Below, piece after piece: positions 4,967 through 20,379 of a stretch of DNA of 37,259 nt. Numbering within the stretch: position 1 is the first letter of the stretch; every line of letters begins with the position of its first letter. This DNA comes from Gammaproteobacteria bacterium. GTDB taxonomy: Bacteria > Pseudomonadota > Gammaproteobacteria > QNFN01. The notes under the pieces are model-generated. The model had not been told where the DNA came from. It saw nothing but the letters and a program-made list of their open reading frames with translations, and searched no databases. The stretch is from contig JAWVZO010000003.1 in NCBI GenBank assembly GCA_033722135.1, positions 1-37,259 on the forward strand, given 5' to 3'. Made by a program: the position numbers and the translations under genes.

Positions 4967-5842
4967 TCAGAGCCAGTAGACGAAGACGAACAGGCCGAGC
5001 CAGACCACGTCGACGAAGTGCCAGTACCAGGCCACCGCCTCGAAGGCGAAGTGGTTGTGCGGCGAGAAGTGGCCCTTCCTCGCGCGAACGAGGATCGCCA
5101 TCAGCATGATCGCGCCGATGGTCACGTGCATGCCGTGGAAGCCGGTCAGGATGTAGAAGGTCGATCCGTAGACCCCCGAGGCGAGGGTCAGGTTGAGGTC
5201 CACGTAGGCGTGCCGGTACTCGTAGGCCTGGAAGCCGACGAACAGCACGCCGAGTGCGATGGTCGCGACCAGACCGCGGATCAGGGTCTTCTGGTCGTTG
5301 AGCTTCAGCCCCCAGTGGGCCCAGGTGATCGTCGCGCCGCTGGTCAGCAGGATCAGGGTGTTGAGCGCCGGGATGCCCCAGGCACCCATCACGGTGTACT
5401 CGCCGCCCAGCGCGCCGGGACCGGCGGTCGGCCAGTCGGCCGCGAACTGGCTGTAGAGGATCTCCGAACTGCCCAGGTACCCGGCACCGCCGAGCCACGG
5501 CACCGCGATGTTGCGGATGTAGTACAGCGCGCCGAAGAAGCTGGCGAAGAAGAACACCTCCGAGGCGATGAACCAGTACATCCCCTGGCGGAACGAGCGG
5601 TCGACCTGGTGGTTGTAGGCGCCCGAGAGGTTCTCCGTGACCACGTCCCGGAACCAGCCGTAGAAGACGTAGCCGATCAGCAGCGCTCCGAGGCCGACGA
5701 CGATTCCGCCAATGGCGACGTCGTTGATCATCAGCGTCGCGCCGAACAGCAGTGCGAACACCGCGAACATCGAGATGAACGGCCACGGGCTCGGTTCCGG
5801 GACGAAGTAGTGGCTACCCGGCGTGTCGCTTGGCTGGCTCAT
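4967..5842 (-). CDS. coxC: Cytochrome c oxidase subunit III
   Basis: 'PSPWP', 'WFIASEVFFF', 'NTLILLTSG', 'TGFHGMHV', 'WYWHFVDVVW'. Confidence 0.96.
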   Translation of the reverse strand: MSQPSDTPGSHYFVPEPSPWPFISMFAVFALLFGATLMINDVAIGGIVVGLGALLIGYVFYGWFRDVVTENLSGAYNHQVDRSFRQGMYWFIASEVFFFASFFGALYYIRNIAVPWLGGAGYLGSSEILYSQFAADWPTAGPGALGGEYTVMGAWGIPALNTLILLTSGATITWAHWGLKLNDQKTLIRGLVATIALGVLFVGFQAYEYRHAYVDLNLTLASGVYGSTFYILTGFHGMHVTIGAIMLMAILVRARKGHFSPHNHFAFEAVAWYWHFVDVVWLGLFVFVYWL

Positions 5843-6461
5843 GGGCGGTCTCGTGGGCCTGGTCTTGGGTGTGATCGTGACCGTCGTCGTGGGCGTGCGG
5901 GCGCGCCACGGCGTCGGGGTCGGTGTTCATGAACGTGTAGGAGACGGTCAGGTGGTTGAACTCGCGGGGCAGGTCGGGCAGCACCGCGAAACGCAGCGGC
6001 ATCTCGACCTCGGCGCCGGCCTCGAGCGTCTGCTCCTGGAAACAGAAGCACTCCACCTTGTCGACATAGGGCGTCGCCTGCCAGGGCGTGACGTTGACCA
6101 CGGCGCGCCCGGTGATCGTCCGCGCCGCGTTGTTGCGTGCGGTGTAGCTCGCCGTGTGCAGGCGACCGGTCTCGATCTCCATCTTGCGCGTGACCGGGGC
6201 GAAGTCCCACGGCAGGTCGGCGTGGACGTTGGCGTCGAAGCGCACCGTCACCGGCCGCGCCACCGGCTCCGCGGCGGGCGGGCCGGGCGTGACGATCTCG
6301 ACAGCGCGCTGGCGTGGTGCGTCGGCGACCTGGATGCCGAGCGCCGCGCAGATCTGGCCGTAGAACGGCGCGAGCCCGAAGCCGAGGCCGAACATGGCCA
6401 GCGCGATGCCGCCGATCCACAGGGCGGTCCTGCCGTGGTTCCGGTGCGCCGTGCCCGTCAT
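5814..6461 (-). CDS. ctaG: Cytochrome c oxidase assembly protein CtaG/Cox11 (CuB insertion), His-rich C-tail
   Basis: N-terminal TM helix followed by Cys, 'VRFDANV...LPWDFAP', 'KVECFCFQEQTL', 'TVSYTF'. Confidence 0.92.
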   Translation of the reverse strand: MTGTAHRNHGRTALWIGGIALAMFGLGFGLAPFYGQICAALGIQVADAPRQRAVEIVTPGPPAAEPVARPVTVRFDANVHADLPWDFAPVTRKMEIETGRLHTASYTARNNAARTITGRAVVNVTPWQATPYVDKVECFCFQEQTLEAGAEVEMPLRFAVLPDLPREFNHLTVSYTFMNTDPDAVARPHAHDDGHDHTQDQAHETAHEPAKRHAG

Positions 6462-6604
6462 CGCGCGGCGTTGAGCGCCGTCTGGATCAGGTTCTTCCAG
6501 AACGGCACCGAGGAGAAGAACACGACGATCGCGAACGCGCCGAGGAGCAGCGCGGTGCGGCGGTTCCTGCGCCGGGTGGCGTCGTCTACCGGGGGCGTGG
6601 CCAT
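6458..6604 (-). CDS. Small single-TM protein between coxA and ctaG (48 aa; possible GTG start 6613)
   Basis: MATPPVDDATRRRNRRTALLLGAFAIVVFFSSVPFWKNLIQTALNAAR; stop overlaps ctaG ATG (ATGA); GTG 6613 overlaps the coxA stop. Confidence 0.7.
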   Translation of the reverse strand: MATPPVDDATRRRNRRTALLLGAFAIVVFFSSVPFWKNLIQTALNAAR

Positions 6605-6609
6605 CGCGT

Positions 6610-8202
6610 TCACTTGACGCGCGGGGCCGTTTCCCAGGAGTGGAACGGCGGCGGCGACGGCAGCTCCCACTCGAGTCCGGTCGCGCCCTCCCACGCCTTG
6701 TTGTCGGCCTTCTTGCCGCCGCGGATGCACTTGATGACGATGTACAGGAACAGCAGGTGGCTGAGGCCGTAGATCAGGCCGGCGACGCTCGAGATGAAGT
6801 TGAACTCGGCGAAGATCACGTTGTAGTCGATGATCCGCCGCGGCATCCCGGCCAGTCCCAGGAAGTGCTGGACGAAGAAGGTCAGGTTGAAGCTGATCAT
6901 GTTGACCCAGAAGAAGATCTTGGCCAGCCGCTCGTCGTACATGTGGCCGGTCCACTTCGGCAGCCAGTAGAAGACCGCCGCGAACAGCCCGTAGATCGCG
7001 CCCGGGATCAGCACGTAGTGGAAGTGGGCGACGACGAACATCGAGTCGTGGTACTGGATGTCGGCCGGGATGACCGCGAGCATCACCCCGGTCAGGCCAC
7101 CGAAGCTGAACAGCAGCACCATCGCCGTGGCGAAAAGCATCGGCGTCTCGAAGGTCATCGCGCCGCGCCACATGGTGGCGATGAAGTTGAACAGGATCAG
7201 GCCGACCGGGATCGAGATCAGGATCGTGCCGATCATGAAGTAGTTCACCGCCGCGAACGACATACCGATGGTGTACTGGTGGTGGGCCCAGACCACCATG
7301 CCGAGGGTCGCTATGACCAGCATCGCACCGACCGTCGAGTGGTAGCCGAACAGCGGCTTGCGCGAGAAGGCCGGGATCACCTGGGCCAGCGCGCCGATCG
7401 CCGGCAGGATCAGGATGTAGACCTCGGGGTGACCGAAGAACCAGAACAGGTGCTGGAACAGCACCGGGTCGCCGCCGCCGGCGGCGTTGAAGAAGCTGGT
7501 GCCGAAGTGGCGGTCGAAGAGCAGCATGGTGACTCCGCCGGCGATGATCGGCACCACCAGGATCAGCAGGAACGCGGTGACGAACCAGGCCCAGCAGAAG
7601 ACCGGCATCTTGAACAGGGTCATGCCGGGGGCGCGCATGTTGAGGATCGTGACGATGATGTTGATCGAGGCCAGCACCGAGGAGATGCCGAGCAGGTGGA
7701 TGGCGAAGATCAGGAAGTCCATCGACATGCCGACCTGCACCGAAAGCGGCGGATAGAGCGTCCAGCCGGTGTTGATCTGGGTGCCGCCGCCGGGGAAGAA
7801 CGGCACGATGAACGACAGGATCAGCATCATCGCCGCGGCCGGGAGGATCCAGAAGCTCAGGTTGTTGAGCCGTGGCAGGGCCATGTCGGGCGCGCCGATC
7901 ATCAGCGGGATCATCCAGTTGGCGATACCCGCGCCGGCCGGCATCACCGCGCCGAAGATCATGATCAGCGCGTGGTTGGTCAGGATGTTGTTGTAGAGAT
8001 CCGGGTCGAGGAACTGCAGGCCGGGGAACAGCAGCTCGGCGCGGATCGCCATGGCGGAAAGGCCGCCGAGGAAGAACATGGTCAGCGCGAACAGCAGGTA
8101 GAGCGTGCCGATGTCCTTGTGGTTGGTGCTGTACAGCCAGCGCCGCCAGCCGTACGGATGATGTTCGTGTTCGCTGTGCAGTGTGTCTGCGGTCGTACTC
8201 AT
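6610..8202 (-). CDS. coxA: Cytochrome c oxidase subunit I, A1 type (K-channel residues substituted)
   Basis: 'TNHKDIG', 'PDMALPRLNN', 'GWTLYPPL', 'FGHPEVY', 'WAHH', 'AHFHYV', 'GMPRR'. Confidence 0.98.
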   Translation of the reverse strand: MSTTADTLHSEHEHHPYGWRRWLYSTNHKDIGTLYLLFALTMFFLGGLSAMAIRAELLFPGLQFLDPDLYNNILTNHALIMIFGAVMPAGAGIANWMIPLMIGAPDMALPRLNNLSFWILPAAAMMLILSFIVPFFPGGGTQINTGWTLYPPLSVQVGMSMDFLIFAIHLLGISSVLASINIIVTILNMRAPGMTLFKMPVFCWAWFVTAFLLILVVPIIAGGVTMLLFDRHFGTSFFNAAGGGDPVLFQHLFWFFGHPEVYILILPAIGALAQVIPAFSRKPLFGYHSTVGAMLVIATLGMVVWAHHQYTIGMSFAAVNYFMIGTILISIPVGLILFNFIATMWRGAMTFETPMLFATAMVLLFSFGGLTGVMLAVIPADIQYHDSMFVVAHFHYVLIPGAIYGLFAAVFYWLPKWTGHMYDERLAKIFFWVNMISFNLTFFVQHFLGLAGMPRRIIDYNVIFAEFNFISSVAGLIYGLSHLLFLYIVIKCIRGGKKADNKAWEGATGLEWELPSPPPFHSWETAPRVK

Positions 8203-8257
8203 GGGTCCGTATCCTTGCCGTGTCCGGCCCCGCGGGCCGTAACGGTCACTTCGCGCT

Positions 8258-9376
8258 TCAGCGCGCTGCCTTGACGTCGCGTGGTTGCACGAGGTCGCCG
8301 GTGTCGTTGCCCCAGGCGTTGCGCTCGTAGGTGACGATCGCCGCGATCTCTAGGTCGTTGAGCTGCCCTTTCCAGGGCGGCATCGCGGAGCCCGGCTTGC
8401 CGTGCAGCACGATGTCGATGTGCGGGCCGGTCGGGCCGGTGGCGATCGCGCTGCCCTTGAGCGGCGGGAAGGCGGGCTGCAGCCCCTCGCCGTTGATCTG
8501 GTGGCAGCTGGCGCACTTGGTGTTATAGAGGCCCTTGCCCTTCTCCATCAGGTCGGGCATGGACCACTCGATGTCGGCCGCCGCCTCGGCCTCGGCAGCC
8601 ACCTCGGCGGCCTTCGCCTCGGCGAGCCAGGTCTCGAACTCGGACTCGCTGACCGCCTCGACGACGATCGGCATCTTGGCGTGCCAGGTGCCGCAGAGCT
8701 CGGCGCACTGGCCGCGGTAGACGCCCTCGGTGTCGATCGTCGCCCAGGTCTCGGTGATGTAGCCGGGAATCGCGTCCTTCTTGAAGCCGAGCGCCGGGAC
8801 CCACATGGCGTGGTTGACGTCGGCGGAGGTGTGCAGGAAGCGCACCGGCCGATGGGTCGGCAGCACCAGACGGTTGTCGACGTCGCGCAGGTAGAGCCCG
8901 TCGTCGGCCTGGTCCTCCGGTAGCGCGCGGCTCTCGATGCGGATGCCGGAGTCCATGTACTCGTATTCCCAGTACCACTGGTGACCGGTCACCTTGACGT
9001 CGAGCATGCCCTCCTGCTTCGGCACGATCCACATCTCCTGGAGCACCTTCTGCGCCGAGCCGGCGATGGTCAGGTCGACGCCGAGCACCATCGCCGGGAC
9101 GATGATCCACGACCAGGTGCCGAACCAGGTCTTGTGAAAGTTCTGGTCGGGCTGGTAGCCGCGGCTCTTGCGGAACTTCCAGATCGCGAAGAAGACCACC
9201 CCGAACACGCCGATCAGCAGGATCGTCGAGATGCCCATGGTCAGCATGTGGAGGTCGTAGATGTCACGCGCGATCGGGGTCGCCGGCGGCGGGAAGTTCA
9301 GGCCGTACTCGGCCCGCGCGGGGGCGGCCGAAACCAGCAGGAGAGGCAAAAACCACAACGATCGGATTGTTTTCAT
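8258..9376 (-). CDS. coxB: Cytochrome c oxidase subunit II with C-terminal cytochrome c (caa3-like); alternative start 9388
   Basis: Signal peptide, two TM helices, 'GHQWYWEY', CuA 'DVNH...CAELCGTWHAKM', C-terminal 'CASCH...M' heme c domain. Confidence 0.96.
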   Translation of the reverse strand: MKTIRSLWFLPLLLVSAAPARAEYGLNFPPPATPIARDIYDLHMLTMGISTILLIGVFGVVFFAIWKFRKSRGYQPDQNFHKTWFGTWSWIIVPAMVLGVDLTIAGSAQKVLQEMWIVPKQEGMLDVKVTGHQWYWEYEYMDSGIRIESRALPEDQADDGLYLRDVDNRLVLPTHRPVRFLHTSADVNHAMWVPALGFKKDAIPGYITETWATIDTEGVYRGQCAELCGTWHAKMPIVVEAVSESEFETWLAEAKAAEVAAEAEAAADIEWSMPDLMEKGKGLYNTKCASCHQINGEGLQPAFPPLKGSAIATGPTGPHIDIVLHGKPGSAMPPWKGQLNDLEIAAIVTYERNAWGNDTGDLVQPRDVKAAR

Positions 9377-9410
9377 GCGCGCAAGCATAGCAGGCTCGGA
9401 GCCGTGGAAA

Positions 9411-9953
9411 TCAGGTGATCGCGGAGCGGGTCCGCACGGGCACGACGGGCAGCGGATCGGCCTCGGCGAGGCGCGGTTTCGGCGCGGCGAGCGAGGCGAG
9501 TGCCTCGGCCAGTTCCTGCCGCTCCTCCTCGACCAGCCGGGCACCGACCTCCAGGCTGCGCCCGTGGGATCGGAGCAGCAGCCGGCTCGGGTACCAGCCC
9601 GTCGGGTCGCGGGCCAGGATCACGCGCACCCAGGCTCGCTGGAAGCGGTGTTCCTCCTCGGGCCGCGAACGGCCACGTTGCACGACCAGGCTGTCCGGTC
9701 CGACGCGGATCACCTCGACCTGGCGGCTCCAGCGGCAGGCGAGGTAGAGCGCGGCGCCGAGCAGCAGCATCTCGGCGCCGGCGAATGGCAGCACCAGCCA
9801 GGCGCCGCGCAGCGCGAACCACCCGGCGATCGCCGAAGTGAGCAGCAGCATCGCCGCGCAGCACCACTTGGCCGCGCGCCACGGCAGCGAGCCGTTCGGG
9901 CGGAGTGTCAGGACGAGGCCGTCGCCGTCGTCGTGGGCGGTGCGGATGATCAT
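9411..9953 (-). CDS. DUF2244-family membrane protein
   Basis: 'LRPNGSL', 'GAWLVLPFAGAE', 'G..VEVG..L.EEER..LA..L'; usual position upstream of coxB. Start 9953 preferred over 10013 because of the promoter geometry. Confidence 0.85.
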   Translation of the reverse strand: MIIRTAHDDGDGLVLTLRPNGSLPWRAAKWCCAAMLLLTSAIAGWFALRGAWLVLPFAGAEMLLLGAALYLACRWSRQVEVIRVGPDSLVVQRGRSRPEEEHRFQRAWVRVILARDPTGWYPSRLLLRSHGRSLEVGARLVEEERQELAEALASLAAPKPRLAEADPLPVVPVRTRSAIT

Positions 9954-9985
9954 GATGGACCGGTCCGGCGGACTGTATTGGCCCG

Positions 9986-10027
9986 ATTGTCCCGCATGAG
10001 GCGCGACGGCCATTTGACTTACCGCAA
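9986..10027 (-). promoter_or_regulatory. Candidate class II FNR/ANR-dependent promoter of the cox operon
   Basis: TTGAC-ttac-CGCAA at 10014-10027 (7/10 to TTGAT-N4-ATCAA). With -10 GACAAT (minus strand, 9991-9986) the box is centred at -41.5. Confidence 0.45.
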
Positions 10028-10044
10028 CAATCTGGCGTCCCGGG

Positions 10045-10734
10045 TCAGGTCGGGCGCACCTCCGGCGGCGGTCGCAGGGCCTCCGCGCTCTCTTCCGGCG
10101 TCGCCGACGGCAGGTGGGGCAGGATGCCGAGGCACGGTGCGTGGAGCCGTCCGCGGAGCGTATCGATCTGCGCGTCGAGGCGCTCCGTGCCGGGCTCGAT
10201 GCAGTTCGCCACCCAGCCGGCGAGGCGCAGGCCGCGCGCGGCGATGCTCTCCGCCGTGAGCAGCGCGTGGTTCAGGCAGCCGAGGCGCATCCCGACCACC
10301 AGCACCGCGTCGAGGTCGAGCACGCCGGCCAGGTCGGCGAGCGTGTGCCGGTCGTCGAGCGGGACCAGCCAACCGCCCGCCCCCTCGACCACGACCACGT
10401 CGGCCCCCTCGGCCAGCACGCGGTAGGCCGCGGCCAGCCGGGCGAGGTCCAGCGCGACCCCGGCCTCGGCGGCGGCGATGTGCGGCGCGATCGGCGGGGC
10501 GAGCGCGTAGGGGTTGATCTCTTCATAGGGCCGCTCCCGGGACGCGCAGGCCATCAGCCGCAGCGCGTCGTCGTTGCGCAGGCCGTGCCCGAGGTCCTCG
10601 CAACCGGCCGCGACCGGCTTCATACCGGCCACCTCCAGGCCCGCCGCGCGCAACCGCAGCATCAGCGCGGCGGCGACGCGCGTCTTGCCGACCCCGGTGT
10701 CGGTGCCGGTGACGAACAGGCCTCGCGCGGTCAC
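10045..10734 (-). CDS. bioD: Dethiobiotin synthase
   Basis: 'FVTGTDTGVGKT', 'MKPVAAG', 'VVEGAGGW', 'LGCLNHALLT'. Confidence 0.96.
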   Translation of the reverse strand: MTARGLFVTGTDTGVGKTRVAAALMLRLRAAGLEVAGMKPVAAGCEDLGHGLRNDDALRLMACASRERPYEEINPYALAPPIAPHIAAAEAGVALDLARLAAAYRVLAEGADVVVVEGAGGWLVPLDDRHTLADLAGVLDLDAVLVVGMRLGCLNHALLTAESIAARGLRLAGWVANCIEPGTERLDAQIDTLRGRLHAPCLGILPHLPSATPEESAEALRPPPEVRPT

Positions 10735-11588
10735 GGCGCGCGGCGCAGGGCGCCCACCGGCACGGCACGTTCGCCGGTGTCGGCGGGGGCCCGCCAGGCG
10801 TGGCCGTAGACCACCTCGTAGGTGGCCGGGAGGGTGCCGTCTTCGCGCCGGAAGGTAGCGTAGGCGTCGGCCAGTGTGGCCAGCGCGCGCCGCCCGGTAA
10901 GCCCGCGCGGACGGCCGGCGGTGACGTTGTGGGCACCGATCGCCTTCAGGTCGCGCATCAGCCCGAGGACGTCCGGGTAGGTGAGCGTGATGTGCTCGCA
11001 GTCCATGACCGGGTCGGCGAAGCGCGCGCCGAGCAGGGCGTCTCCGAGGTCGTGCAGGTCGAAGAAGGCGTTGACGTGGTTGCGGTCGTCGACCTCGGCC
11101 CAGCTAGCACGCAGCTCTCCGAGGGTGTCGGGCCCGAAGGTCGTGAACAGCAGCAGGCCGCCCGGGCGCAGCACCCGGTGCAGCTCCGCGAAGACCGCGG
11201 CGGGGTCGAGACACCACTGCAGCGCGAGGTTGGAGAACAGCAGGTCGACGCTGCGTTCGGCCAGCGGCAGCGTGCCGAGGTCGCCGCAGATCCAATGGGG
11301 TCCGGGCCCGACCCGGCGCCGGGCCTCGGCGAGCATGGCCGGCGCCAGGTCGAGCCCGACCAGCCGTGTTTCGGGGAACCGCTCCGACAGGCCCGCGCTC
11401 TGACGGCCGGTGCCGCAGCCCAGGTCGACCGCCACCCGCGGTTCGAGGCGCATCCACTCCAGCCGCTCGAGCAGCCGCCGGCCGACCTCGTGCTGCAGCA
11501 CGGCCGCGGCGTCGTAGCTCGACGCCGCGCGGTCGAACGAGTCGCGCACGTCGCGGCGGTCGTGGCTCCAGGGTTGCGGTTCAGGCAT
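10731..11588 (-). CDS. bioC: Malonyl-ACP O-methyltransferase
   Basis: 'FDRAASSYDAAAVLQHEV', SAM motif 'VDLGCGTG', 'SNLALQW', 'TFGPDTLGELR'; ATG 11588 overlaps the bioH 3' end. Confidence 0.93.
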   Translation of the reverse strand: MPEPQPWSHDRRDVRDSFDRAASSYDAAAVLQHEVGRRLLERLEWMRLEPRVAVDLGCGTGRQSAGLSERFPETRLVGLDLAPAMLAEARRRVGPGPHWICGDLGTLPLAERSVDLLFSNLALQWCLDPAAVFAELHRVLRPGGLLLFTTFGPDTLGELRASWAEVDDRNHVNAFFDLHDLGDALLGARFADPVMDCEHITLTYPDVLGLMRDLKAIGAHNVTAGRPRGLTGRRALATLADAYATFRREDGTLPATYEVVYGHAWRAPADTGERAVPVGALRRAP

Positions 11589-12348
11589 CGAGAAACGCCT
11601 CGACGGCCTTGGTGCAAGGGGCCAGCGCGGACAGGAACGGCGCGTGGCAGGCGCCGTCGAGCACCTCGACCCGCGCCTGCGGCCACGAGGCGAGCCGCCC
11701 GGCGACACCCGCGGGGACGAGCGTGTCCCGCGCGCCGAGGAGCCACAGGGACGGCACCCGCAGGGCCGCCGAGACGGAGGTGAGATCGCTCCGCGCCAGG
11801 AGTTCGAGCCCGGTCGCCAGGGCGTCGGGATCGGGCTGACCCCCGGCGGCGAGGACGGTGCGCAGCACACGCCGCACCGAGCGCTCGGCGTCGTCGCCGT
11901 GGGCCACCAGCCCGGCGAACCGGTTCAGCGTGGTCGCGACATCTCGCGCCAGGTCGTGCCTGAAGGCGTCGAGCGTGTCGGGCGGCAGGGCGTCGGGCCA
12001 CGCTTCGGTCGCGGTGAAGCGCGGCGTCGTCGCCAGCAGCACGAGACGCCCGAAGCGCTCCGGCCTGGCCAGCGCGAGCTGCAGGCAGGCGAGGCCGCCG
12101 AGCGACCAGCCGAGCCAGTCGCGCGTGTCGGGCAGCGTCGCGTCGAGCTGGGCGGCGAGGCCCTGCAGGTGGTCGGGCATCGGCAGGCCGCGGCTGCCGC
12201 CGTGGCCCGGGAGCTCGACCAGCTCCACCGTGCGCCGGCGGGCCAGCGACTCGGCCAGCGAGCGCAGCGTCGCGGCGCCGAAGCCCCAGCCGTGGACGAT
12301 GGCCAGCGGCGGCCCCTCGCCGAAGCGGATCACCTGCAGCGGGGTCAC
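11581..12348 (-). CDS. bioH: Pimeloyl-ACP methyl ester carboxylesterase
   Basis: GTG start overlapping the bioF stop; 'VHGWG', 'ELPGHG', nucleophile 'GWSLGG', 'D.LVP', 'HAPFLS'. Confidence 0.92.
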   Translation of the reverse strand: MTPLQVIRFGEGPPLAIVHGWGFGAATLRSLAESLARRRTVELVELPGHGGSRGLPMPDHLQGLAAQLDATLPDTRDWLGWSLGGLACLQLALARPERFGRLVLLATTPRFTATEAWPDALPPDTLDAFRHDLARDVATTLNRFAGLVAHGDDAERSVRRVLRTVLAAGGQPDPDALATGLELLARSDLTSVSAALRVPSLWLLGARDTLVPAGVAGRLASWPQARVEVLDGACHAPFLSALAPCTKAVEAFLDA

Positions 12349-13493
12349 GCGGGCAGTTCCGCGAGGCCGTCGAGCAGGCGGTCGACCTGCGCCTCGTCGT
12401 GGGCGGCGGAGAAGGTGATGCGCAGCCGGGCGGTGCCGTCGGGAACGGTCGGGGGTCGGATCGCGGTGACCAGCAACCCCCGGGCCTCGAGCGCGCGGCT
12501 GGCGTCCAGGGCGCGTGCCGCGTCGCCGAGCACCAGGGCCTGGATCGGAGACTGCGACGGCAGCAGCTCGAGGCCGAGTGCCCCGGCGCCGGCCCGGAAA
12601 CGGGCGACCAGCTCGGCGAGCCGATCGCGACGCCACTCTTCGTCGATCGCCAGGCGCAGGCTGGCGCGGGTCGCTGCGGCGACCGCCGGCGGCAACGCGG
12701 TGGTGTAGATGTACGGCCGGGCGTGCTGGATCAGCGTCTCGATCATGGGCTCGTCCCCGGCCACGAAGGCTCCGAAGGTGCCGAACGCCTTGCCCAGCGT
12801 GCCGACCAGCAGCGGCACCTGCCCGGCGTCGAGCCCGGCCAGCGCGAGGCTGCCGCGTCCGCCGGGACCGGTGGCGCCGAGGCCGTGGGCATCGTCGACC
12901 AGCAGCCGGGCATCGTGTTCGCGACAGGTCGCGGCGAGTTCGGCGAGCGGCGCGACGTCGCCGTCCATGCTGAACACTCCGTCGGTCGCGACCAGCGCCC
13001 GGCCCGGCGCGCGTTTCAGCTGCTCGGCGAGCGAATCGGGGTCGGCGTGGCGATAGCGCAGCCGCCGCGCGCCGCTGAGGCGCGCGCCGTCGATCAGCGA
13101 GGCGTGGTTGAGGCGGTCCCCGATCACGCTGTCGCCGCGCCCGGCCAGCGCGGCGATGGTGCCGAGATTGGCCATGTAGCCGGTCGAGAAGAGCAGCGCA
13201 CGCGCGCGCCCGGTGAACGCGGCGAGCTCCTCCTCGAGGGCATGGTGCTCGGCGTGGTGGCCGTTGACCAGGTGGGCCGCGCCGCTGCCGCTGCCGAAAC
13301 GGCGTGCCGCGCTCGCGAACGCCTCGGCGACCCGCGGGTCGCCGGCGAGGCCGAGGTAATCGTTGCTGCAGAAGGCGAGCAGACGACGCCCGTCGACCAC
13401 CGCCTCCGGCCCGACCGGGCCGGAAACGACGCGTCGCTCGCGGTAGAGCCCCTCGGACCGCCTGCGATCGAGCGCCGCGGCCAGCGCCCTCAT
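12345..13493 (-). CDS. bioF: 8-amino-7-oxononanoate synthase
   Basis: '[10 protein letters not shown]', 'NHASLIDG', 'DGVFSMDGD', 'DDAHG', PLP lysine 'GTLGKAFG', 'IRPPTVP'; ATGA overlap with bioB. Confidence 0.96.
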
Positions 13494-14527
13494 ACCGTGC
13501 CAGGCGCGGCGCGTCCGCTGGCGCAGGCGTTGCCGTAGAGCAGAGGGCCCCGGTCGGTGCCGCCGCTGTGCGCATGCTCGTGCTCGGCCTGCGCGTGCAG
13601 GTCGAGACGGGCGAACAGCGCCGCGTCGCGGTCGGGCGAGGCGTTGGGCGTGGTCAACAGCCGCTCGCCGTGGAACACCGAGTTGGCACCGGCGAGGAAG
13701 CAGAGCGCCTGCAGCTCGTCGCTCATCTGCTCGCGTCCGGCCGAGAGGCGGACCACCGAGTCCGGCATCAGGATGCGGGCGACGGCGACGGTGCGCACGA
13801 GCTCGAAGGGGTCGAGATCCGGGGCGTCGGCCAGCGGCGTGCCGGGCACCTTGACCAGGTGGTTGATCGGCACGCTCTCGGGGTGGCTCGGCAGGTTGGC
13901 GAGCTGCTGGAGCAGGCCGGCCCGGTCGGCGCGCGACTCGCCCATGCCGACGATGCCGCCGCAGCAGACGGCGAGGCCGGCCTCGCGCACCGCCGTGAGG
14001 GTCTGCAGGCGGTCGTCGTAGCCGCGCGTGGTGATCACCTCCGGGTAGTACTCCGGCGAGGTGTCGAGGTTGTGGTTGTAGTAGTCGAGGCCCGCGTCGC
14101 GCAGCGCGCGCGCCTGGGCGTCGCTGAGCATGCCGAGGGTCAGGCAGGTCTCGAGGCCCAGCTCCTTGACCTCGCGCACCATGTCGGCGACCAGCGCGAT
14201 GTCGCCGTCGCGCGGGCTGCGCCAGGCGGCCCCCATGCAGAAACGCGTCGCCCCCGCGTCCCGCGCCTTGCGCGCGGCGGCGAGCACCTCGTCGACCGCC
14301 AGCAGCCGCTCGCGCTCGAGTTCGGTGTCGTGGTGTGCGCTCTGCGGGCAATAGCCGCAGTCCTCGGGGCAGGCGCCGGTCTTGATGCTGAGCAGCGCGC
14401 TGACCTGGATCGCGCCGGACTCGTGGTGGGCGCGGTGCGTCTGCTGGGCGGCGAAGAGCAGGTCGTGGAACGGCTGCTCGAAGAGGGCGAGGACCTCGTC
14501 GCGGGTCCAGTCGTGGCGCTTGGTCAT
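13490..14527 (-). CDS. bioB: Biotin synthase
   Basis: Radical SAM '[11 protein letters not shown]', 'YNHNLDTS', 'ESVPIN', 'RLSAGR'. Confidence 0.98.
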
Positions 14528-15330: not shown

Positions 15331-15353
15331 CGGCTGCCGCCACGCGGCATCCG
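15331..15353. terminator. GC hairpin between convergent comF and the 669-aa gene
   Basis: CGGcTGCCGC-cac-GCGGCAtCCG (9 of 10 bp paired); no clear U-tract. Confidence 0.3.
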
Positions 15354-15359
15354 GCCGGT

Positions 15360-17369
15360 TCAGTCTGCGGGCGGGGCGGCCACGAAGGCGGAGTCGTACA
15401 CCGGCAGCCGATCCGCGGCCCAGCTCGCCCGGCCCAGCTCGGTGACCGCGTCGACCTCGGCCTGGGGGACGTTCTCCGGGTCCCAGACCTCGAGCGGATC
15501 GTAGTGGAACAGGTAGAGCCGCGAGGTGAACTGGCTGATCGGCAGCGACGATTCGCCGGCCAGCTCGCCGTGCCCCTCGGTGGAGACCACGACGTCGTGT
15601 CCCCAGTTCTGGCCGCTGTCGTTGTTCGGGTTGTAGAAGTAGGCGCGGGTCTCGCCGGTCTGGTCGAGCGCGACGCGCAGGAGCGTGATGGCGTGCCAGC
15701 CGATGAACCGGGCCATCGCGTCGGTCACCGCCAGGCCGACCGGTTGCGGATGGATGACCGGGTGGCCCCAGCTGTAGGCCGGGTGATAGCAGGCGTAGAA
15801 GAGGCGGACGAAGTCGTCGTAGTCCTTCAGCTTGCCGGAGGCGACGTCGACGGCGATGGCGAAACCGCGCCCCACGCGCCAGCCGTGAAACTCCGGGTTG
15901 ACGTGGATGTGCGGGTCGTTGCCGGCGGTGTCCGCGAGCCGGCTCATCTCGGCATAGACCCGGTCGAGATGCGGAACCAGCACCAGCGAGACCGGGTCGA
16001 GATCGCTGCCGATCTGACCCGCCCCGCCCTCGGGCAGGAACGCCGACGATATCTGCCTGTCGTGGAAGGTCATCAGGATGCCGTCGTCGCGTCCGGCCCA
16101 GGCCAGCAGCTGCAGCAGGTAGTCGGGATCGGAGTAGGCCCACATCGACATCGCCCGTGCCGACTGGCAGGTCGGGTTGTCGCCCTGGCCGATGCCGAGG
16201 GGCTGGCCGAGCACGCTGATGGTCCCGGCCAGCAGATGGACGTCGGGCGGATGGCGCGTGCCGCAGACACTGGCCAGCCGCCCCTTGGCATTTTCGGTCA
16301 GCGGCAGGTTGATCTGGCGCCACAGCGAGGAGGCCACGCCGGGCACGTGCAGCACGGCGCGCTCGAGCAGCGCGGTCAGGCCGTACAGGCACTGGCAGGT
16401 CTCGGGGTGGACGGCCTTGTCGATCAGCGCATGGACGAGCTCGCGGTAGGTCAGGTAGCTGTCGAGTCCGGTGCTGCTCAGGCCGAGCGCGGTGCGCAGC
16501 AGCTCCGGGTTTTCCGTGAGCAGGAAGCGGACCAGGGAGGCGTGGTACGGAGAGACGAGCCCGGTGTCCAGCATGGATCGGGCGCAGGCGTTGGCCTCCT
16601 CCTGCAGTCGGCTCGCGTCCATCGCGGTGAGACTCTCCGCGTAGGCGTCGATCCCGGGGTCGTCGCGCGACGCGGGGCTCGGGCTGTACAGCGAGCTGAT
16701 CAGGCGTTCGGCCCCGACCGGCATTCGCGAGCCGGCATGCTCGGGGTCGTAGCAGATCACCGACAGCTTGGTGACCATCGCGTGGATCGGCGCGACGTGG
16801 ATCGGGCGCTGGCGCAACAGACGCCATATCTCCTCGACGAGCTGTTCGAGGAGGTTGTCGTAGCCGATGCTCTCGGCGATGAACTGCAGGACGTTGCGCG
16901 CGAGTTCCGTCGTGGCGCCCCGCGCACGCGAGGCCTCGGTGTGACGCTCGAAGACGTAGTCGAGGCAGAACGCAAGCACCTCGCGGAGATGGTGACCGGC
17001 CTGTTCCGCGGAGACCCCGGGACGCACGTACCGGCCCTCGGCGATCGCGAGCAGGCGCAACTCGCTCAGGCACTCGAGGGTCGCCGACCAGCGATCGCCT
17101 TCGTTGAGCGTCTGCGGGACGAAGGCGGCCTGGAGCCGTTCGGGCTGGTCCCAGTCACTGCCGGCAAAGACCCCCGCGGCATCGAAGCGGTGGGCGAGCC
17201 CGGTCAGGGCGGCCGGCCCCCTGGGACGACGCAGCACCCGCTCCGCGGTGTCCAGTACCCGCGGTAGGTGGCGCGCCCGAGCGAACCCCGGGGCTTGCTC
17301 GAGTCGTTCCAGCGCCTCGGTGAAGCGCTCCACTGGCTGGTCGAGATCTTCGGCCTGGGATTCGTTCAT
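15360..17369 (-). CDS. 669-aa protein with putative C-terminal papain/calpain-like cysteine peptidase or transpeptidase domain
   Basis: Long ORF with protein-like composition; motifs 'GQGDNPTCQS' (Q395, C401), 'GWHAITLLRV' (H559) and 'YFYNPNNDSGQNWG' (N580). The ORF is secure; the function is inferred. Confidence 0.75.
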   Translation of the reverse strand: MNESQAEDLDQPVERFTEALERLEQAPGFARARHLPRVLDTAERVLRRPRGPAALTGLAHRFDAAGVFAGSDWDQPERLQAAFVPQTLNEGDRWSATLECLSELRLLAIAEGRYVRPGVSAEQAGHHLREVLAFCLDYVFERHTEASRARGATTELARNVLQFIAESIGYDNLLEQLVEEIWRLLRQRPIHVAPIHAMVTKLSVICYDPEHAGSRMPVGAERLISSLYSPSPASRDDPGIDAYAESLTAMDASRLQEEANACARSMLDTGLVSPYHASLVRFLLTENPELLRTALGLSSTGLDSYLTYRELVHALIDKAVHPETCQCLYGLTALLERAVLHVPGVASSLWRQINLPLTENAKGRLASVCGTRHPPDVHLLAGTISVLGQPLGIGQGDNPTCQSARAMSMWAYSDPDYLLQLLAWAGRDDGILMTFHDRQISSAFLPEGGAGQIGSDLDPVSLVLVPHLDRVYAEMSRLADTAGNDPHIHVNPEFHGWRVGRGFAIAVDVASGKLKDYDDFVRLFYACYHPAYSWGHPVIHPQPVGLAVTDAMARFIGWHAITLLRVALDQTGETRAYFYNPNNDSGQNWGHDVVVSTEGHGELAGESSLPISQFTSRLYLFHYDPLEVWDPENVPQAEVDAVTELGRASWAADRLPVYDSAFVAAPPAD

Positions 17370-17447
17370 TGGGAGTCCGCGGAAGGCGCTGGGAGGACAC
17401 GATGGTCCGGCCCGGCCACGGGGGTTGCCCCGCAGCGGGCCGCTGCC

Positions 17448-18671
17448 TCAGAGGTAGTAGTCCAGCCCCTCCTGGTGTTTGAGCAGGTCGCGCAACTTGA
17501 TCGGGTCGTCTCCGAAGAAGAAGACCAGACCCCAGTGGGTGCCGAATGCGGTGCGCTTGGTCACCTTGCCCTCCAGTGGCGCCGGCAGTTCATGATACTC
17601 GAAGTACGGATGGTCCAGCGTCTCCTCGGGGATCTCGAGCTTGTTGACGACGCGGTGCCGCGGGTAGACGCCGAAGCAGCCGGCGTGGCCCTTGGCATCG
17701 ACCACCTCGCGCGGGAAGAAGGCCTCGATCTCCTCCTCGGTGGCCTTCGGGTCGAAGACCAGCATCGACGCCTGGTAGGCGTTGAAGCCGTAGGCGCGCT
17801 CGATGAGCTCGAACGCCTTGAAGCCGGGCGGCCGGTAGGCGACCTCGCCGAAGTAGAGCGTGCCGTCGCTGGTGACGAAGTACTCGGGGTGGATCTGGCC
17901 GAACTTGATGTCGAAGGTCTTGATCAGCTTCTCGACCTCCTCGGTGATCCGTGGCCGCCACTTCTCGAGCTCCGGCGTCGCCGGCACGAACACCGAGTAG
18001 CCGAGGGTGACGTACTCGGAGATGTTCAGGAAGCGGATCTTGCCGTCGTGGACCCACGCCTCGACGGCGAACTCCCAGCCGGAGAGGTGGCTCTCCATCA
18101 GCAGCGGGAACTCCTCGTCCGGGATCTTCTCGACGTCCTCGGCGGTGCGGATCGTCCGGTGGCCGAGGCAGCCGGCCTTGTCGAAGGCCTTGACGTGGAT
18201 CGGGTCGTCCGGATCGCCGTCGAGCTTGAGCAGCGTCTGCCCGACGCGGCGGATGAAGCGGATGATGTCATCGTGGTCGTGGGCTTCCTCGAAGATGCCC
18301 ACGCGGATGCCGCCGAGCTGGGCGCGCCGTTTCATGAGCGCCTTGTCGCGGAACAGGATCGCCTGCCCGTGGAGGCGCGGGTTGCCGGTCAGCACCGAGT
18401 TGATGGCGCCGGCCCATTCCACGGTCTCCTCGAACAGCGGGACGGCGATGTCGACGCCCTCTTCCTTGAGCCGCTCGGCGATCTCCATCGAGCGGTCGTT
18501 GAGCCGCTCGAAGTTCCAGGGTATGAACGGAATGCCGTTCTGCTTCGCGTAGTCCTCGGCCCACTCGGGCGCGACGACGACGTAGCGGCGGTCGAAATTC
18601 TCCGCCGCTTCGATGGCGCCGAGCGCCCAGCCGAGCAGCGCGATGTAGCCTTTCTCGGGGTTCTTCTCCAT
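17448..18671 (-). CDS. ATP-grasp carboxylate-amine ligase (L-amino acid ligase-like)
   Basis: 'FRDKALMKRR', 'HVKAFDKAGCLG', 'LLMESHLSGWEFAVE...DG', 'IHPEYF...G.LYFGEVAYRPPG'; AAGGAG RBS inside the ectC 3' end. Confidence 0.88.
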   Translation of the reverse strand: MEKNPEKGYIALLGWALGAIEAAENFDRRYVVVAPEWAEDYAKQNGIPFIPWNFERLNDRSMEIAERLKEEGVDIAVPLFEETVEWAGAINSVLTGNPRLHGQAILFRDKALMKRRAQLGGIRVGIFEEAHDHDDIIRFIRRVGQTLLKLDGDPDDPIHVKAFDKAGCLGHRTIRTAEDVEKIPDEEFPLLMESHLSGWEFAVEAWVHDGKIRFLNISEYVTLGYSVFVPATPELEKWRPRITEEVEKLIKTFDIKFGQIHPEYFVTSDGTLYFGEVAYRPPGFKAFELIERAYGFNAYQASMLVFDPKATEEEIEAFFPREVVDAKGHAGCFGVYPRHRVVNKLEIPEETLDHPYFEYHELPAPLEGKVTKRTAFGTHWGLVFFFGDDPIKLRDLLKHQEGLDYYL

Positions 18672-18673
18672 GT

Positions 18674-19105
18674 TCAGAGGCTCCTTCCGGGTTCGTTGCC
18701 CTCCGTGTCGTAGTCGGTCTGCGCGGGCGGCGCGTAGGCGCCGTCCTTGTCGTGGATCTCGCGTCCGGTGACCGGGGGGTTGAAGGTGCAGACCAGACGC
18801 ATTTCCGTCTCGGCCTTGAGGATGTGGCGGTCGTGCTTGTCGAGCGCATAGAGCGTGCCGGGCTCGATGGTGTGGACCTCGTCGGTCTCGAGGTCGGTGA
18901 TGGTGCCCTTGCCGGCGTAGCAGTAGACGGCCTCGAGGTGGTACTTGTAGTGCATCTGGAACTCGAGGCCGGCCGGGAACACGGTCTCGTGCATCGAGAA
19001 GCCCATGCCGTCGCCGGCGAGCAGGAAGCGGTAGCTGGTCCAGCCGTCCGGGCTGATCACCTCGCGCTCGGTGCCTTTGAGGTCATCGAGTCTGACGATT
19101 TTCAT
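18674..19105 (-). CDS. ectC: Ectoine synthase (EctC cupin), no ectAB adjacent
   Basis: 'W.S.R.LL..DGMGFS.H.T', 'HY..HLEAVYC', '[13 protein letters not shown]', '[15 protein letters not shown]'; metal ligands E58/Y86/H94; GGAG RBS. Confidence 0.93.
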
Positions 19106-19344
19106 GTTTTCGACTCCATGGTGCGTGGTTGTACCCCGGCGGTCCGGGGCCGTGGTGGCGACACGTTTTCAGCGACGGGTTGAGAGAGCCGTCACGGGTC
19201 CGTAGAGCGCCTGGCGGCGAGGGTCTCGACGGTGAAGATTCGTCGGACGATGCGGGGGCGGGCAGGTCCGGACCCCGGCGGGAGGCGCGGGGGAATCAAG
19301 ACGAGTCAGCGACCAGGTGGCGTCGCCTGTTCAGGGTGCTGTGT

Positions 19345-19384
19345 CAGAATTTTCTTTTCTGCATAATGACATATAAACATAGCA
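19345..19384 (-). promoter_or_regulatory. AT-rich block with extended -10 (TGCTATGTT), candidate promoter of the ectC unit
   Basis: Sharp AT-rich island in high-GC DNA; TG-C-TATGTT on the minus strand at 19384-19376, about 270 nt upstream of ectC. Confidence 0.4.
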
Positions 19385-19417
19385 TGCCCGCCCGATATCC
19401 TCCACTCGGCGGTCGTT

Positions 19418-19460
19418 GAGGGCTTTTGCCGCCTACGTTGCAGGCGCCGCGAAAGCCCTC
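19418..19460. terminator. Long imperfect hairpin right after the ubiA stop
   Basis: GAGGGCTTTtGC...GCgAAAGCCCTC outer stem plus inner GCCT/AGGC; no U-tract, so terminator or RNA-stability element. Confidence 0.4.
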
Positions 19461-19470
19461 CGCGCCGTAT

Positions 19471-20379
19471 TCAGCCGGAGGTACGCAGCGCGTAGTCGGC
19501 GATCACGCCCACGGTCACCGCGAGGCCCAGCCAGTTGTTGTTGAGGAAGGCGCGGAAGCACTGGGCCGGCTCGCGGCCGGCGATCAGGCGCTGGTGGTAG
19601 ACCATGAACCCGACCGCCACCAGCAAACCGGCGACGAAGGGCCAGCCGAGCCCGGCCTGGTGGCCCACCACCGCGAGCGTGACCACGAACAGCCCCTGCA
19701 GCAGGGCGAGGATCGGCAGGTCGGCGTCGCCGAACAGGATCGCCGTCGATTTGACGCCGATCTTCAGGTCTTCGGGCCGGTCGGCCATGGCATACATGGT
19801 GTCGTAGATCGTCGCCCAGAGGATCGCCGCCAGGTAGAGCAGCCATGCGACCGGCGGCAGGCTCCCGGCCTGGGCGGCGAAGGCCATCGGTACGGCCCAG
19901 CCGAAGGCGGCGCCGAGGTGGATCTGGGGCAGGTGGGTGTAGCGCTTGGCGAACGGGTAGGTCGCGGCGAGCAGCACGGCGACCACCGACAGGGCGATGG
20001 TCAGCGGGTTCATCAGCAGCACCAGCAGGAAGGCGAGCAGGCTGAGCCCGGCGGCGACGTAGAGCGCCTCGCGCGGGGTGACCAGCCCCGCGGCCAGGGG
20101 GCGCTCGCTGGTGCGCGCGACGTGGGGGTCGATCTCGCGGTCGGCGAAGTCGTTGATCGCGCAGCCCGCCGAGCGCATCAGGAAGGTGCCGAGCACGAAC
20201 ACCCCCAGCACCAGCGGGTCGGGCACTCCCTCGGCTGCGATCCACAGCGCCCAGAGGCACGGCCAGAGCAGCAGGAACGTGCCGATGGGCCGGTGCAGGC
20301 GCACCAGCAGGGCGTAGCGGCGCAGTCGCTCGCTGAGCGAGGGCGCGGCGGAGGGGGCGGATTCGGTCTCGGTAGCCAT
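19471..20379 (-). CDS. ubiA: 4-hydroxybenzoate polyprenyltransferase (alternative start 20418)
   Basis: '[14 protein letters not shown]', '[24 protein letters not shown]', '[25 protein letters not shown]'. Confidence 0.96.

Follow-up and report, generated by a model that had tools for sequence, protein, structure and literature searches.

The window analysed here is a stretch of 37,259 nucleotides, positions 1 to 37,259 of contig JAWVZO010000003.1 (assembly GCA_033722135.1), from a gammaproteobacterium of the lineage QNFN01. On its minus strand lies an operon of three genes: ectC, then after a gap of 2 nt a gene for an ATP-grasp ligase, P0002, then after a gap of 78 nt the gene for P0001, a protein of 669 amino acids that is the subject of this account. 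The argument concerns the papain-like fold predicted for the C-terminal half of P0001, the residues that would make it an enzyme, and its partnership with the ligase. It leans on the following features, where AF2 stands for AlphaFold2.

15360..17369, minus strand: gene for P0001, 669 amino acids, of a clan-CA-like family new here (open reading frame and translation; stop codon included)
16248..17369, minus strand: N-terminal all-helical domain of P0001, residues 1-374, with helices to about 388 (predicted from AF2 secondary structure)
15363..16247, minus strand: C-terminal papain/calpain-like catalytic domain of P0001, residues 375-669, core about 362-627 (predicted from AF2 and structural matches)
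16185..16187, minus strand: Q395, codon CAG, putative glutamine of the oxyanion hole, six residues ahead of the cysteine
16167..16169, minus strand: C401, codon TGC, putative nucleophile
15693..15695, minus strand: H559, codon CAC, putative general base, in the motif G-W-H-A
15630..15632, minus strand: N580, codon AAC, putative third residue of the triad, in the motif N-P
17448..18671, minus strand: gene for P0002, probable ATP-grasp carboxylate-amine ligase of 407 amino acids, L-amino-acid-ligase-like (PDB sequence matches and a weak match to PF13535)
18674..19105, minus strand: ectC, gene for ectoine synthase P0003, first gene of the operon (PF06339, NF009806)

The open reading frame of P0001 has a G+C content at third codon positions of 0.90, as do real genes in this window of 70% G+C. 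An earlier reading of the DNA letters by themselves, the sequence-only reading, had picked out Q395, C401, H559 and N580 as a papain- or calpain-type active site, with spacings of 158 from C401 to H559 and 21 from H559 to N580. Re-reading the residues from the translation gives the same coordinates and the same spacings, in motifs that start at residues 392, 557 and 577. The N-terminus of P0001 is acidic, with no hydrophobic run, so the protein has no signal peptide, as had been claimed, and is cytoplasmic as far as its sequence tells.

The full-length AF2 model, built from an alignment of the family (A1), has a mean predicted local distance difference test (pLDDT) of 92.3 and a predicted template modelling score (pTM) of 0.88; a model of residues 375-669 by themselves has values of 93.5 and 0.89. 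Residues 10-388 form helices and nothing else, much as the sequence-only reading had supposed of a helical N-terminal region of about 380 residues. Structural searches give no consistent match to this N-terminal domain, short helical segments within it (about 170-228) hitting unrelated proteins. In the model of the C-terminal domain, C401 is the first residue of a helix (401-413), H559 lies within a strand (555-568), and N580 directly follows another (574-579). This is the arrangement of clan CA, with cysteine at the N-terminus of a helix and histidine on a strand, and Q395-x5-C401 supplies the glutamine found some six residues before the cysteine.

What the domain resembles was sought by Foldseek and by VIA. 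Foldseek against the PDB, given the domain model, finds one match at E≤0.001, the core of calpain-1 (7w7o; E 5.4e-4, probability 0.99), and calpain cores fill the listed matches as far as rank 19, with E up to 1.3e-2. A VIA follow-up superposes the core of calpain-3 on model residues 363-626 with Z 8.3 and a root-mean-square deviation (rmsd) of 4.5 Å over 206 residues. Calpain cores overall give Z 7.0-8.3 and rmsd 4.3-4.8 Å over 200-215 residues, the longest alignments obtained. The wide VIA search, of 48,161 chains with no Foldseek pre-filter, adds the C39 domains of ComA and PCAT1 (Z 7.7-8.3, rmsd 2.8-3.0 Å, 121-124 residues aligned), calpain-1 (Z 7.0-7.3, 201-202 aligned), the phytochelatin-synthase-like Alr0975 (Z 7.1-7.3) and staphopain C (Z 6.5-7.5). 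Below these come SpeB, AvrPphB, UfSP, bleomycin hydrolase and cathepsin B, and also CtaG (Z 5.1-5.5) and CcbD (Z 5.0-5.3). Almost all 50 rows are clan-CA structures. If the catalytic cysteines are C17 in ComA, C21 in PCAT1, C24 in staphopain and C29 in cathepsin B, then the offsets at which the alignments start place C401 within 0-1 residues of them, a weak agreement that assumes an ungapped stretch. The matched families belong to what is called "cluster I" of papain-like proteins in PMC10318531.

The residues themselves are well kept. In an alignment of P0001 with 44 representatives of 580-760 amino acids, whose identity to it is 33-48%, 54 positions are kept at ≥95%, with 41 of them at residue 387 or later and 13 in the N-terminal domain. 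Among them are just one of the protein's 9 cysteines, C401, and three of its 26 histidines, H487, H559 and H622. Invariance of all four active-site residues had been expected, and it holds for Q395 and C401 (45 of 45) and falls short for H559 and N580 (43 of 45). One of the two exceptions, P0169, has an arginine-rich C-terminus and looks frameshifted. The other, P0178, a divergent protein of 611 amino acids, keeps the glutamine and the cysteine and replaces H559 and N580 together, by leucine and serine, and it may represent a subgroup that is non-catalytic or differently wired. Conserved charged residues of the C-terminal domain include R405, D458, D485, R565, R575, E602 and E606; the N-terminal domain has W73, L79 and R105 among its invariant positions. 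All four active-site residues are 100% kept in 118 closer homologues, yet so are 119 positions, and the closer set by itself is uninformative. The distant relatives confirm that the motif set in P0001 is real, beyond chance.

Several results count against this view of the domain. Given the full model, Foldseek finds no match in the PDB at E≤0.001, though its top rows are nonetheless calpain cores (E 0.045, probability 0.99), and the Foldseek alignments to calpains, with template modelling scores of just 0.35-0.42 and rmsd of about 8 Å, speak of similarity and not of a close match. A Z of 7-8 is only moderate, "middling" on VIA's scale, where a best Z of that size is common. Pfam, PDB searches by phmmer and by profile, and hhalign all fail to tie the P0001 family to clan CA. 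A Pfam scan at E≤1 gives no family match to P0001, only the spurious PF23537 (E 0.14, 13 bits); specifically, the models for calpain (Peptidase_C2, PF00648), peptidase C39 (PF03412) and phytochelatin synthase (C83, PF05023) do not match. An NCBIfam scan gives nothing, and phmmer, run on every chain in the PDB, gives no match at E≤10. The 73-sequence profile (A1) set against the PDB gives five rows at chance level (E 0.3-0.73), none of them calpain, and hhalign of a family alignment (A2) against 14 C39 domains returns a probability of 1%. Finally, H559 is no better conserved than H487 and H622, and only its place in the topology singles it out as the base, and N582, as conserved as N580 (43 of 45), is an alternative third member of the triad.

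The kinship of P0001 to known families is thus of the sort visible only in three dimensions. Nearly every row of four independent lists of structural matches is a clan-CA protein, and the same region of P0001 is covered each time, so the papain-like fold predicted for the C-terminal domain is a sound assignment. Since the structural matches of residues 375-669 are almost exclusively clan-CA enzymes, the papain/calpain-type character first ascribed to the domain is supported.

The likeness to known enzymes can be made more precise. The calpain core (MEROPS C2) provides the best Foldseek matches and the longest alignments, which cover both of its subdomains, and P0001 shares with it the motifs Q-G-x4-C, H-A and N-P. 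The corresponding spacings in calpain-2, 157 and 24, are near the 158 and 21 of P0001. However, identity in the structural alignments is 7-14%, P0001 has no tryptophan after the cysteine nor after N-P, and in place of C2-like or EF-hand domains it has 380 helical residues at its N-terminus. Moreover, unlike calpain, it is the product of a bacterial gene and is genetically tied to an ATP-grasp ligase. The C39 domains of ComA and PCAT1 superpose most tightly on the core, and the pattern Q-x5-C ... H ... D-P, invariant in 14 genome-derived C39 domains, parallels Q395-x5-C401 ... H559 ... N580-P581. P0001 differs from them in that about 125 inserted residues separate the cysteine helix from the histidine strand, and in having neither an ABC transporter gene nor a leader-peptide gene nearby.

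P0001 has a great many relatives. There are at least 2608 homologues (E≤0.001, clusters at 90% identity, 8000 candidates scored), and those that bear a name are all called "hypothetical protein". Among 1.84 billion representatives at 50% identity there are 255 matches, 97 of them at E≤1e-30, and the related records in the protein atlas are solely unnamed clusters of the same family. Full-length members all run to about 590-750 amino acids, and so the two-domain architecture is constant in the family. A profile search of contigs from species-representative genomes confirmed relatives at no fewer than 589 of the 596 matched stretches, in hosts that include Marinobacter, Halomonas/Vreelandella, Nocardia, mycobacteria and planctomycetes. 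As far as these searches show, P0001 founds an unnamed family of putative cytoplasmic, calpain-like cysteine enzymes of clan CA.

The partner, P0002, is probably an ATP-grasp enzyme. Its match to PF13535 (E 1.7e-5, 24.9 bits) is under the cut-off of 27, its best sequence matches in the PDB are the L-amino acid ligases 4wd3 (E 6.8e-4) and 3vot (E 0.019), related clusters in the atlas bear LAL_C2, and the database name of its relatives is "carboxylate--amine ligase", nothing finer. The tie between the two genes is strict. Among the best 80 loci of the confirmed stretches (at least 589), an orthologue of the ligase (73-81% identity) is present in 72: in 69 it is the next gene upstream, with the same orientation, and in 3 it is on the opposite strand. 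Of the remaining 8 loci, one has only a match of 31% identity and seven have no neighbouring ligase, and all five of the seven non-adjacent genomes that were checked hold a ligase orthologue elsewhere (77-80% identity). Among 401 genomes evenly drawn from the same class, P0001 and the ligase occur in the same 12 and neither occurs alone in any. Pairwise identities within the two families are correlated (r=0.83; 2346 pairs, 69 loci). The conserved unit, then, is the ligase plus P0001, an obligate genetic pair. A prediction of a complex between the ligase and residues 81-669 of P0001 scored 0.00 in two runs without controls, which carries no weight either way.

No third conserved gene family surrounds the pair in the 80 loci, as judged by neighbours of ≥70 amino acids. 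No gene for a carrier protein (peptidyl or acyl carrier protein, PCP/ACP) accompanies it, and no ABC transporter or leader-peptide gene is found amongst the conserved neighbours. The other neighbours examined are unrelated housekeeping genes: mqo, pyruvate kinase, a thiamine pyrophosphate (TPP) enzyme, an integrase, a TlyA-like methyltransferase. In one of the five genomes with the ligase elsewhere, the copy of P0001 found first (L028) has no adjoining ligase, and a second paralogue, 50% identical to that of the window, lies at L085:2729-4753 on the minus strand, divergent from an ATP-grasp gene. At G193:C3:152398-153619 the gene for the ATP-grasp orthologue is broken into two frames that overlap, which suggests a frameshift or a sequencing error; the P0001 orthologue is directly downstream.

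The ligase is the more conserved of the two proteins. Over the 69 loci its identity has a median of 82% and a minimum of 69%, vs 67% and 48% for P0001. In an alignment of 34 ligases from Pseudomonadota, Actinomycetota, Cyanobacteria and Planctomycetota (A3), sequences are 74-87% identical to the copy in the window, mean column identity is 83%, and about half of the positions are invariant, which is unusual for a small-molecule ligase.

The pair also keeps company with ectoine synthase. The ectC product in the window scores 183.2 bits against PF06339 (cut-off 27) and 179.3 bits against NF009806 (cut-off 128), and it is the sole EctC match of its genome. When EctC was scored in 400 genomes of the class sample, it exceeded the cut-off in 12 of the 12 that carry the two-gene module and in 38 of the 388 that do not (50 of 400 in all). 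In other phyla it is present in four of five module-positive genomes: Gimesia, Nocardia carnea, Mycolicibacter sinensis and a metagenome-assembled genome of Desulfobacteraceae. As side observations, ectA and ectB of the window's genome lie on a short separate contig (G000:C268, L082) with no ectC downstream there; in a Methylophaga locus (L021:5420-7640) ectC and a gene for an MscS-type mechanosensitive channel precede the P0001 homologue; and in a locus from Pseudomonadales (L032:2754-4703) a gene for a TrkA-like K+ channel is near ectC and the ligase. Both channels serve in osmotic stress.

Pairing with the ligase and residence in hosts with ectoine synthase point to a role in osmoadaptation or in the metabolism of nitrogenous solutes, one that has gone unrecognised. 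I propose, with about as much belief as doubt, that P0001 is a cytoplasmic thiol enzyme of papain fold that hydrolyses the small amide made by the ligase, the two constituting a make-and-break pair in osmoadaptation. The ligase, using ATP, would join a carboxylate to an amine, and the small metabolite so formed, an amide or a compound of dipeptide type, would be attacked by P0001 by way of a thioester on C401 and then hydrolysed. C401, at the N-terminus of its helix, would be the nucleophile, with H559 and N580, on the neighbouring beta-hairpin, as the base and its orienting partner and with Q395 forming the oxyanion hole. Making and breaking the amide would set the level of a nitrogenous solute when osmotic conditions change. 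That P0001 is catalytic, that its substrate is a small molecule, that the reaction runs towards hydrolysis and that its role is osmotic, I infer.

There are precedents for such logic. Glutathionylspermidine synthetase/amidase combines an ATP-dependent amide ligase with a Cys-His amidase of the papain superfamily that acts on the same bond, both activities being fused in one protein and the amidase being a CHAP domain. The ligase and P0001, unlike these, are the products of two genes, and the thiol enzyme is calpain- or C39-like. The peptidase of the osmolyte system based on N-acetylglutaminylglutamine amide (NAGGN) is another precedent for making and breaking.

Some observations tell against the proposal. 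Nothing found points to hydrolysis over transfer. Conservation of the ligase goes far beyond what is typical of small-molecule enzymes, and a macromolecular substrate fits this at least equally well. Phormidium willei carries the module, and EctC was not found there; of the 80 other loci, just 4 have an EctC-like gene adjacent. The 12 module-positive genomes come from 9 genera that have salty habitats in common, so the association with EctC is possibly ecological rather than biochemical, and may reflect merely shared habitats and ancestry.

If transfer is favoured instead of hydrolysis, P0001 becomes a biosynthetic transacylase or transpeptidase. C401 would be loaded, as a thioester, with an acyl or aminoacyl group drawn either from what the ligase makes or straight from the acyl-phosphate, and would hand that group to an amine acceptor, so that an oligomer or conjugate is built up. 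This general mode of action is that of phytochelatin synthase, CtaG, BtrH and CcbD, and amide-forming enzymes of papain fold are indeed among the structural matches (Alr0975, CtaG and CcbD, at the Z values given above), though they score no better than the peptidases. The strict pairing of P0001 with the ligase would suit a transacylase too. So would the documented combination of an ATP-grasp enzyme with a papain-like transacylase in the making of closthioamide, as set out in PMC7183216: CtaD/CtaG there, and BtrJ/BtrH of butirosin, join an ATP-grasp protein to a papain-fold enzyme with Cys-His-Asp/Asn in amide chemistry that is independent of the ribosome. However, the documented systems are thiotemplated on carrier proteins and belong to large clusters (PMC7183216), whereas the P0001 module is two genes, with no carrier and no third conserved gene, in a cassette of 4.1 kb that has no room for one. 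On balance I regard transfer as rather unlikely. A variant that dispenses with the carrier, in which ligase and P0001 make up a two-enzyme route to an amide and the thioester of C401, serving as its own template, is passed to the amine, strikes me as a long shot. If true, this route would yield a nitrogenous compatible solute not yet described, or else a modified intermediate of the ectoine pathway by way of diaminobutyrate or N-acetyl-diaminobutyrate chemistry, and it would explain both the hosts with ectoine synthase and the occasional operon with a solitary ectC.

The conservation of the ligase (median 82%, about half of the positions invariant) is of a degree commoner amongst enzymes with macromolecular partners. 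One might then suppose that the ligase modifies a protein, in the style of RimK or tubulin tyrosine ligase, and that P0001 is a calpain-like regulatory protease, or a remover of peptide tags, whose helical N-terminal domain recognises the target. The length of the alignments to calpain cores and the presence of so large an additional helical domain fit this well enough, but the nearest solved relatives of the ligase are free L-amino-acid ligases, not RimK-type enzymes, no gene for a candidate target is conserved nearby, and the many invariant charged residues in the catalytic domain suggest a small polar substrate. A protein substrate is, in my estimation, distinctly unlikely. It is very hard to credit that the papain fold of P0001 is catalytically dead and serves to scaffold or regulate the ligase. 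P0178, with neither H559 nor N580, indicates that non-catalytic members may exist, but pseudoenzymes normally lose the catalytic set, and the full set of Q, C, H and N persists in 43 of 45 distant relatives and 118 of 118 close ones.

Two further ideas were considered and set aside. The operon might have made a ribosomally synthesized and post-translationally modified peptide (RiPP), such as a graspetide, but there is no room for a precursor gene: the 365-bp leader of the operon has only implausible small open reading frames, and no short neighbour of ≥70 amino acids is conserved, frames of <70 amino acids lying outside the comparison across loci. PADLOC gave no match that would make it a defence system.

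In the literature searched there is no paper on the P0001 family or on a module of ectC, ATP-grasp ligase and cysteine enzyme. The papain fold is already known, as is the coupling of an ATP-grasp enzyme with one of papain fold; the family, its architecture, the strict module of two genes and its distribution among ectoine producers appear to be new. A large and wholly unnamed family thereby gains a papain/calpain-type active site, which is a direct handle for experiment, in hosts that include industrially used producers of ectoine. The role of "solitary" ectC genes is left unresolved in an ectoine review (PMC5924519), and the module offers a possible context for such genes.

Two more features bear on how the operon came to be in this genome and on its leader.

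15334..19478, no strand assigned: inserted cassette of about 4.1 kb (ectC, ligase, P0001), between the comF-like and ubiA genes
19335..19385, minus strand: AT-rich patch in the 365-bp leader upstream of ectC (read from the sequence)

Three close relatives, two in the same genus and one in the same family, have the flanks of the cassette abutting, 4, 220 and 41 bp apart, and neither ectC, the ligase nor P0001 was found in them. The G+C content of the cassette is 0.66-0.68 vs 0.72-0.75 in the flanks. The abutting flanks in relatives and the lower G+C show 15334-19478 to be an acquired cassette, gained horizontally. The 4.1-kb insertion has no conspicuous flanking repeats, direct or inverted, and no integrase was seen. 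At the edge of the insertion, just past the stop codon of ubiA, is a 15-nt inverted repeat with a 13-nt loop (19418-19460), possibly the terminator of ubiA. A scan of the region upstream of ectC for the sigma-70 consensus gives 0 sites; the AT-rich patch, going by its base composition, is a candidate promoter or operator of the operon. Housekeeping genes flank the cassette: to one side ubiA, recG and ppk, to the other a comF-like gene, bioBFHCD and cox genes. Within the window, positions 4967-14527 hold two sets of ordinary housekeeping genes: cox genes, ctaG and DUF2244, which form a cluster for cytochrome c oxidase, and then a biotin operon, made up of bioB, a bioF-like gene, a bioH-like hydrolase, a bioC-like methyltransferase and bioD.

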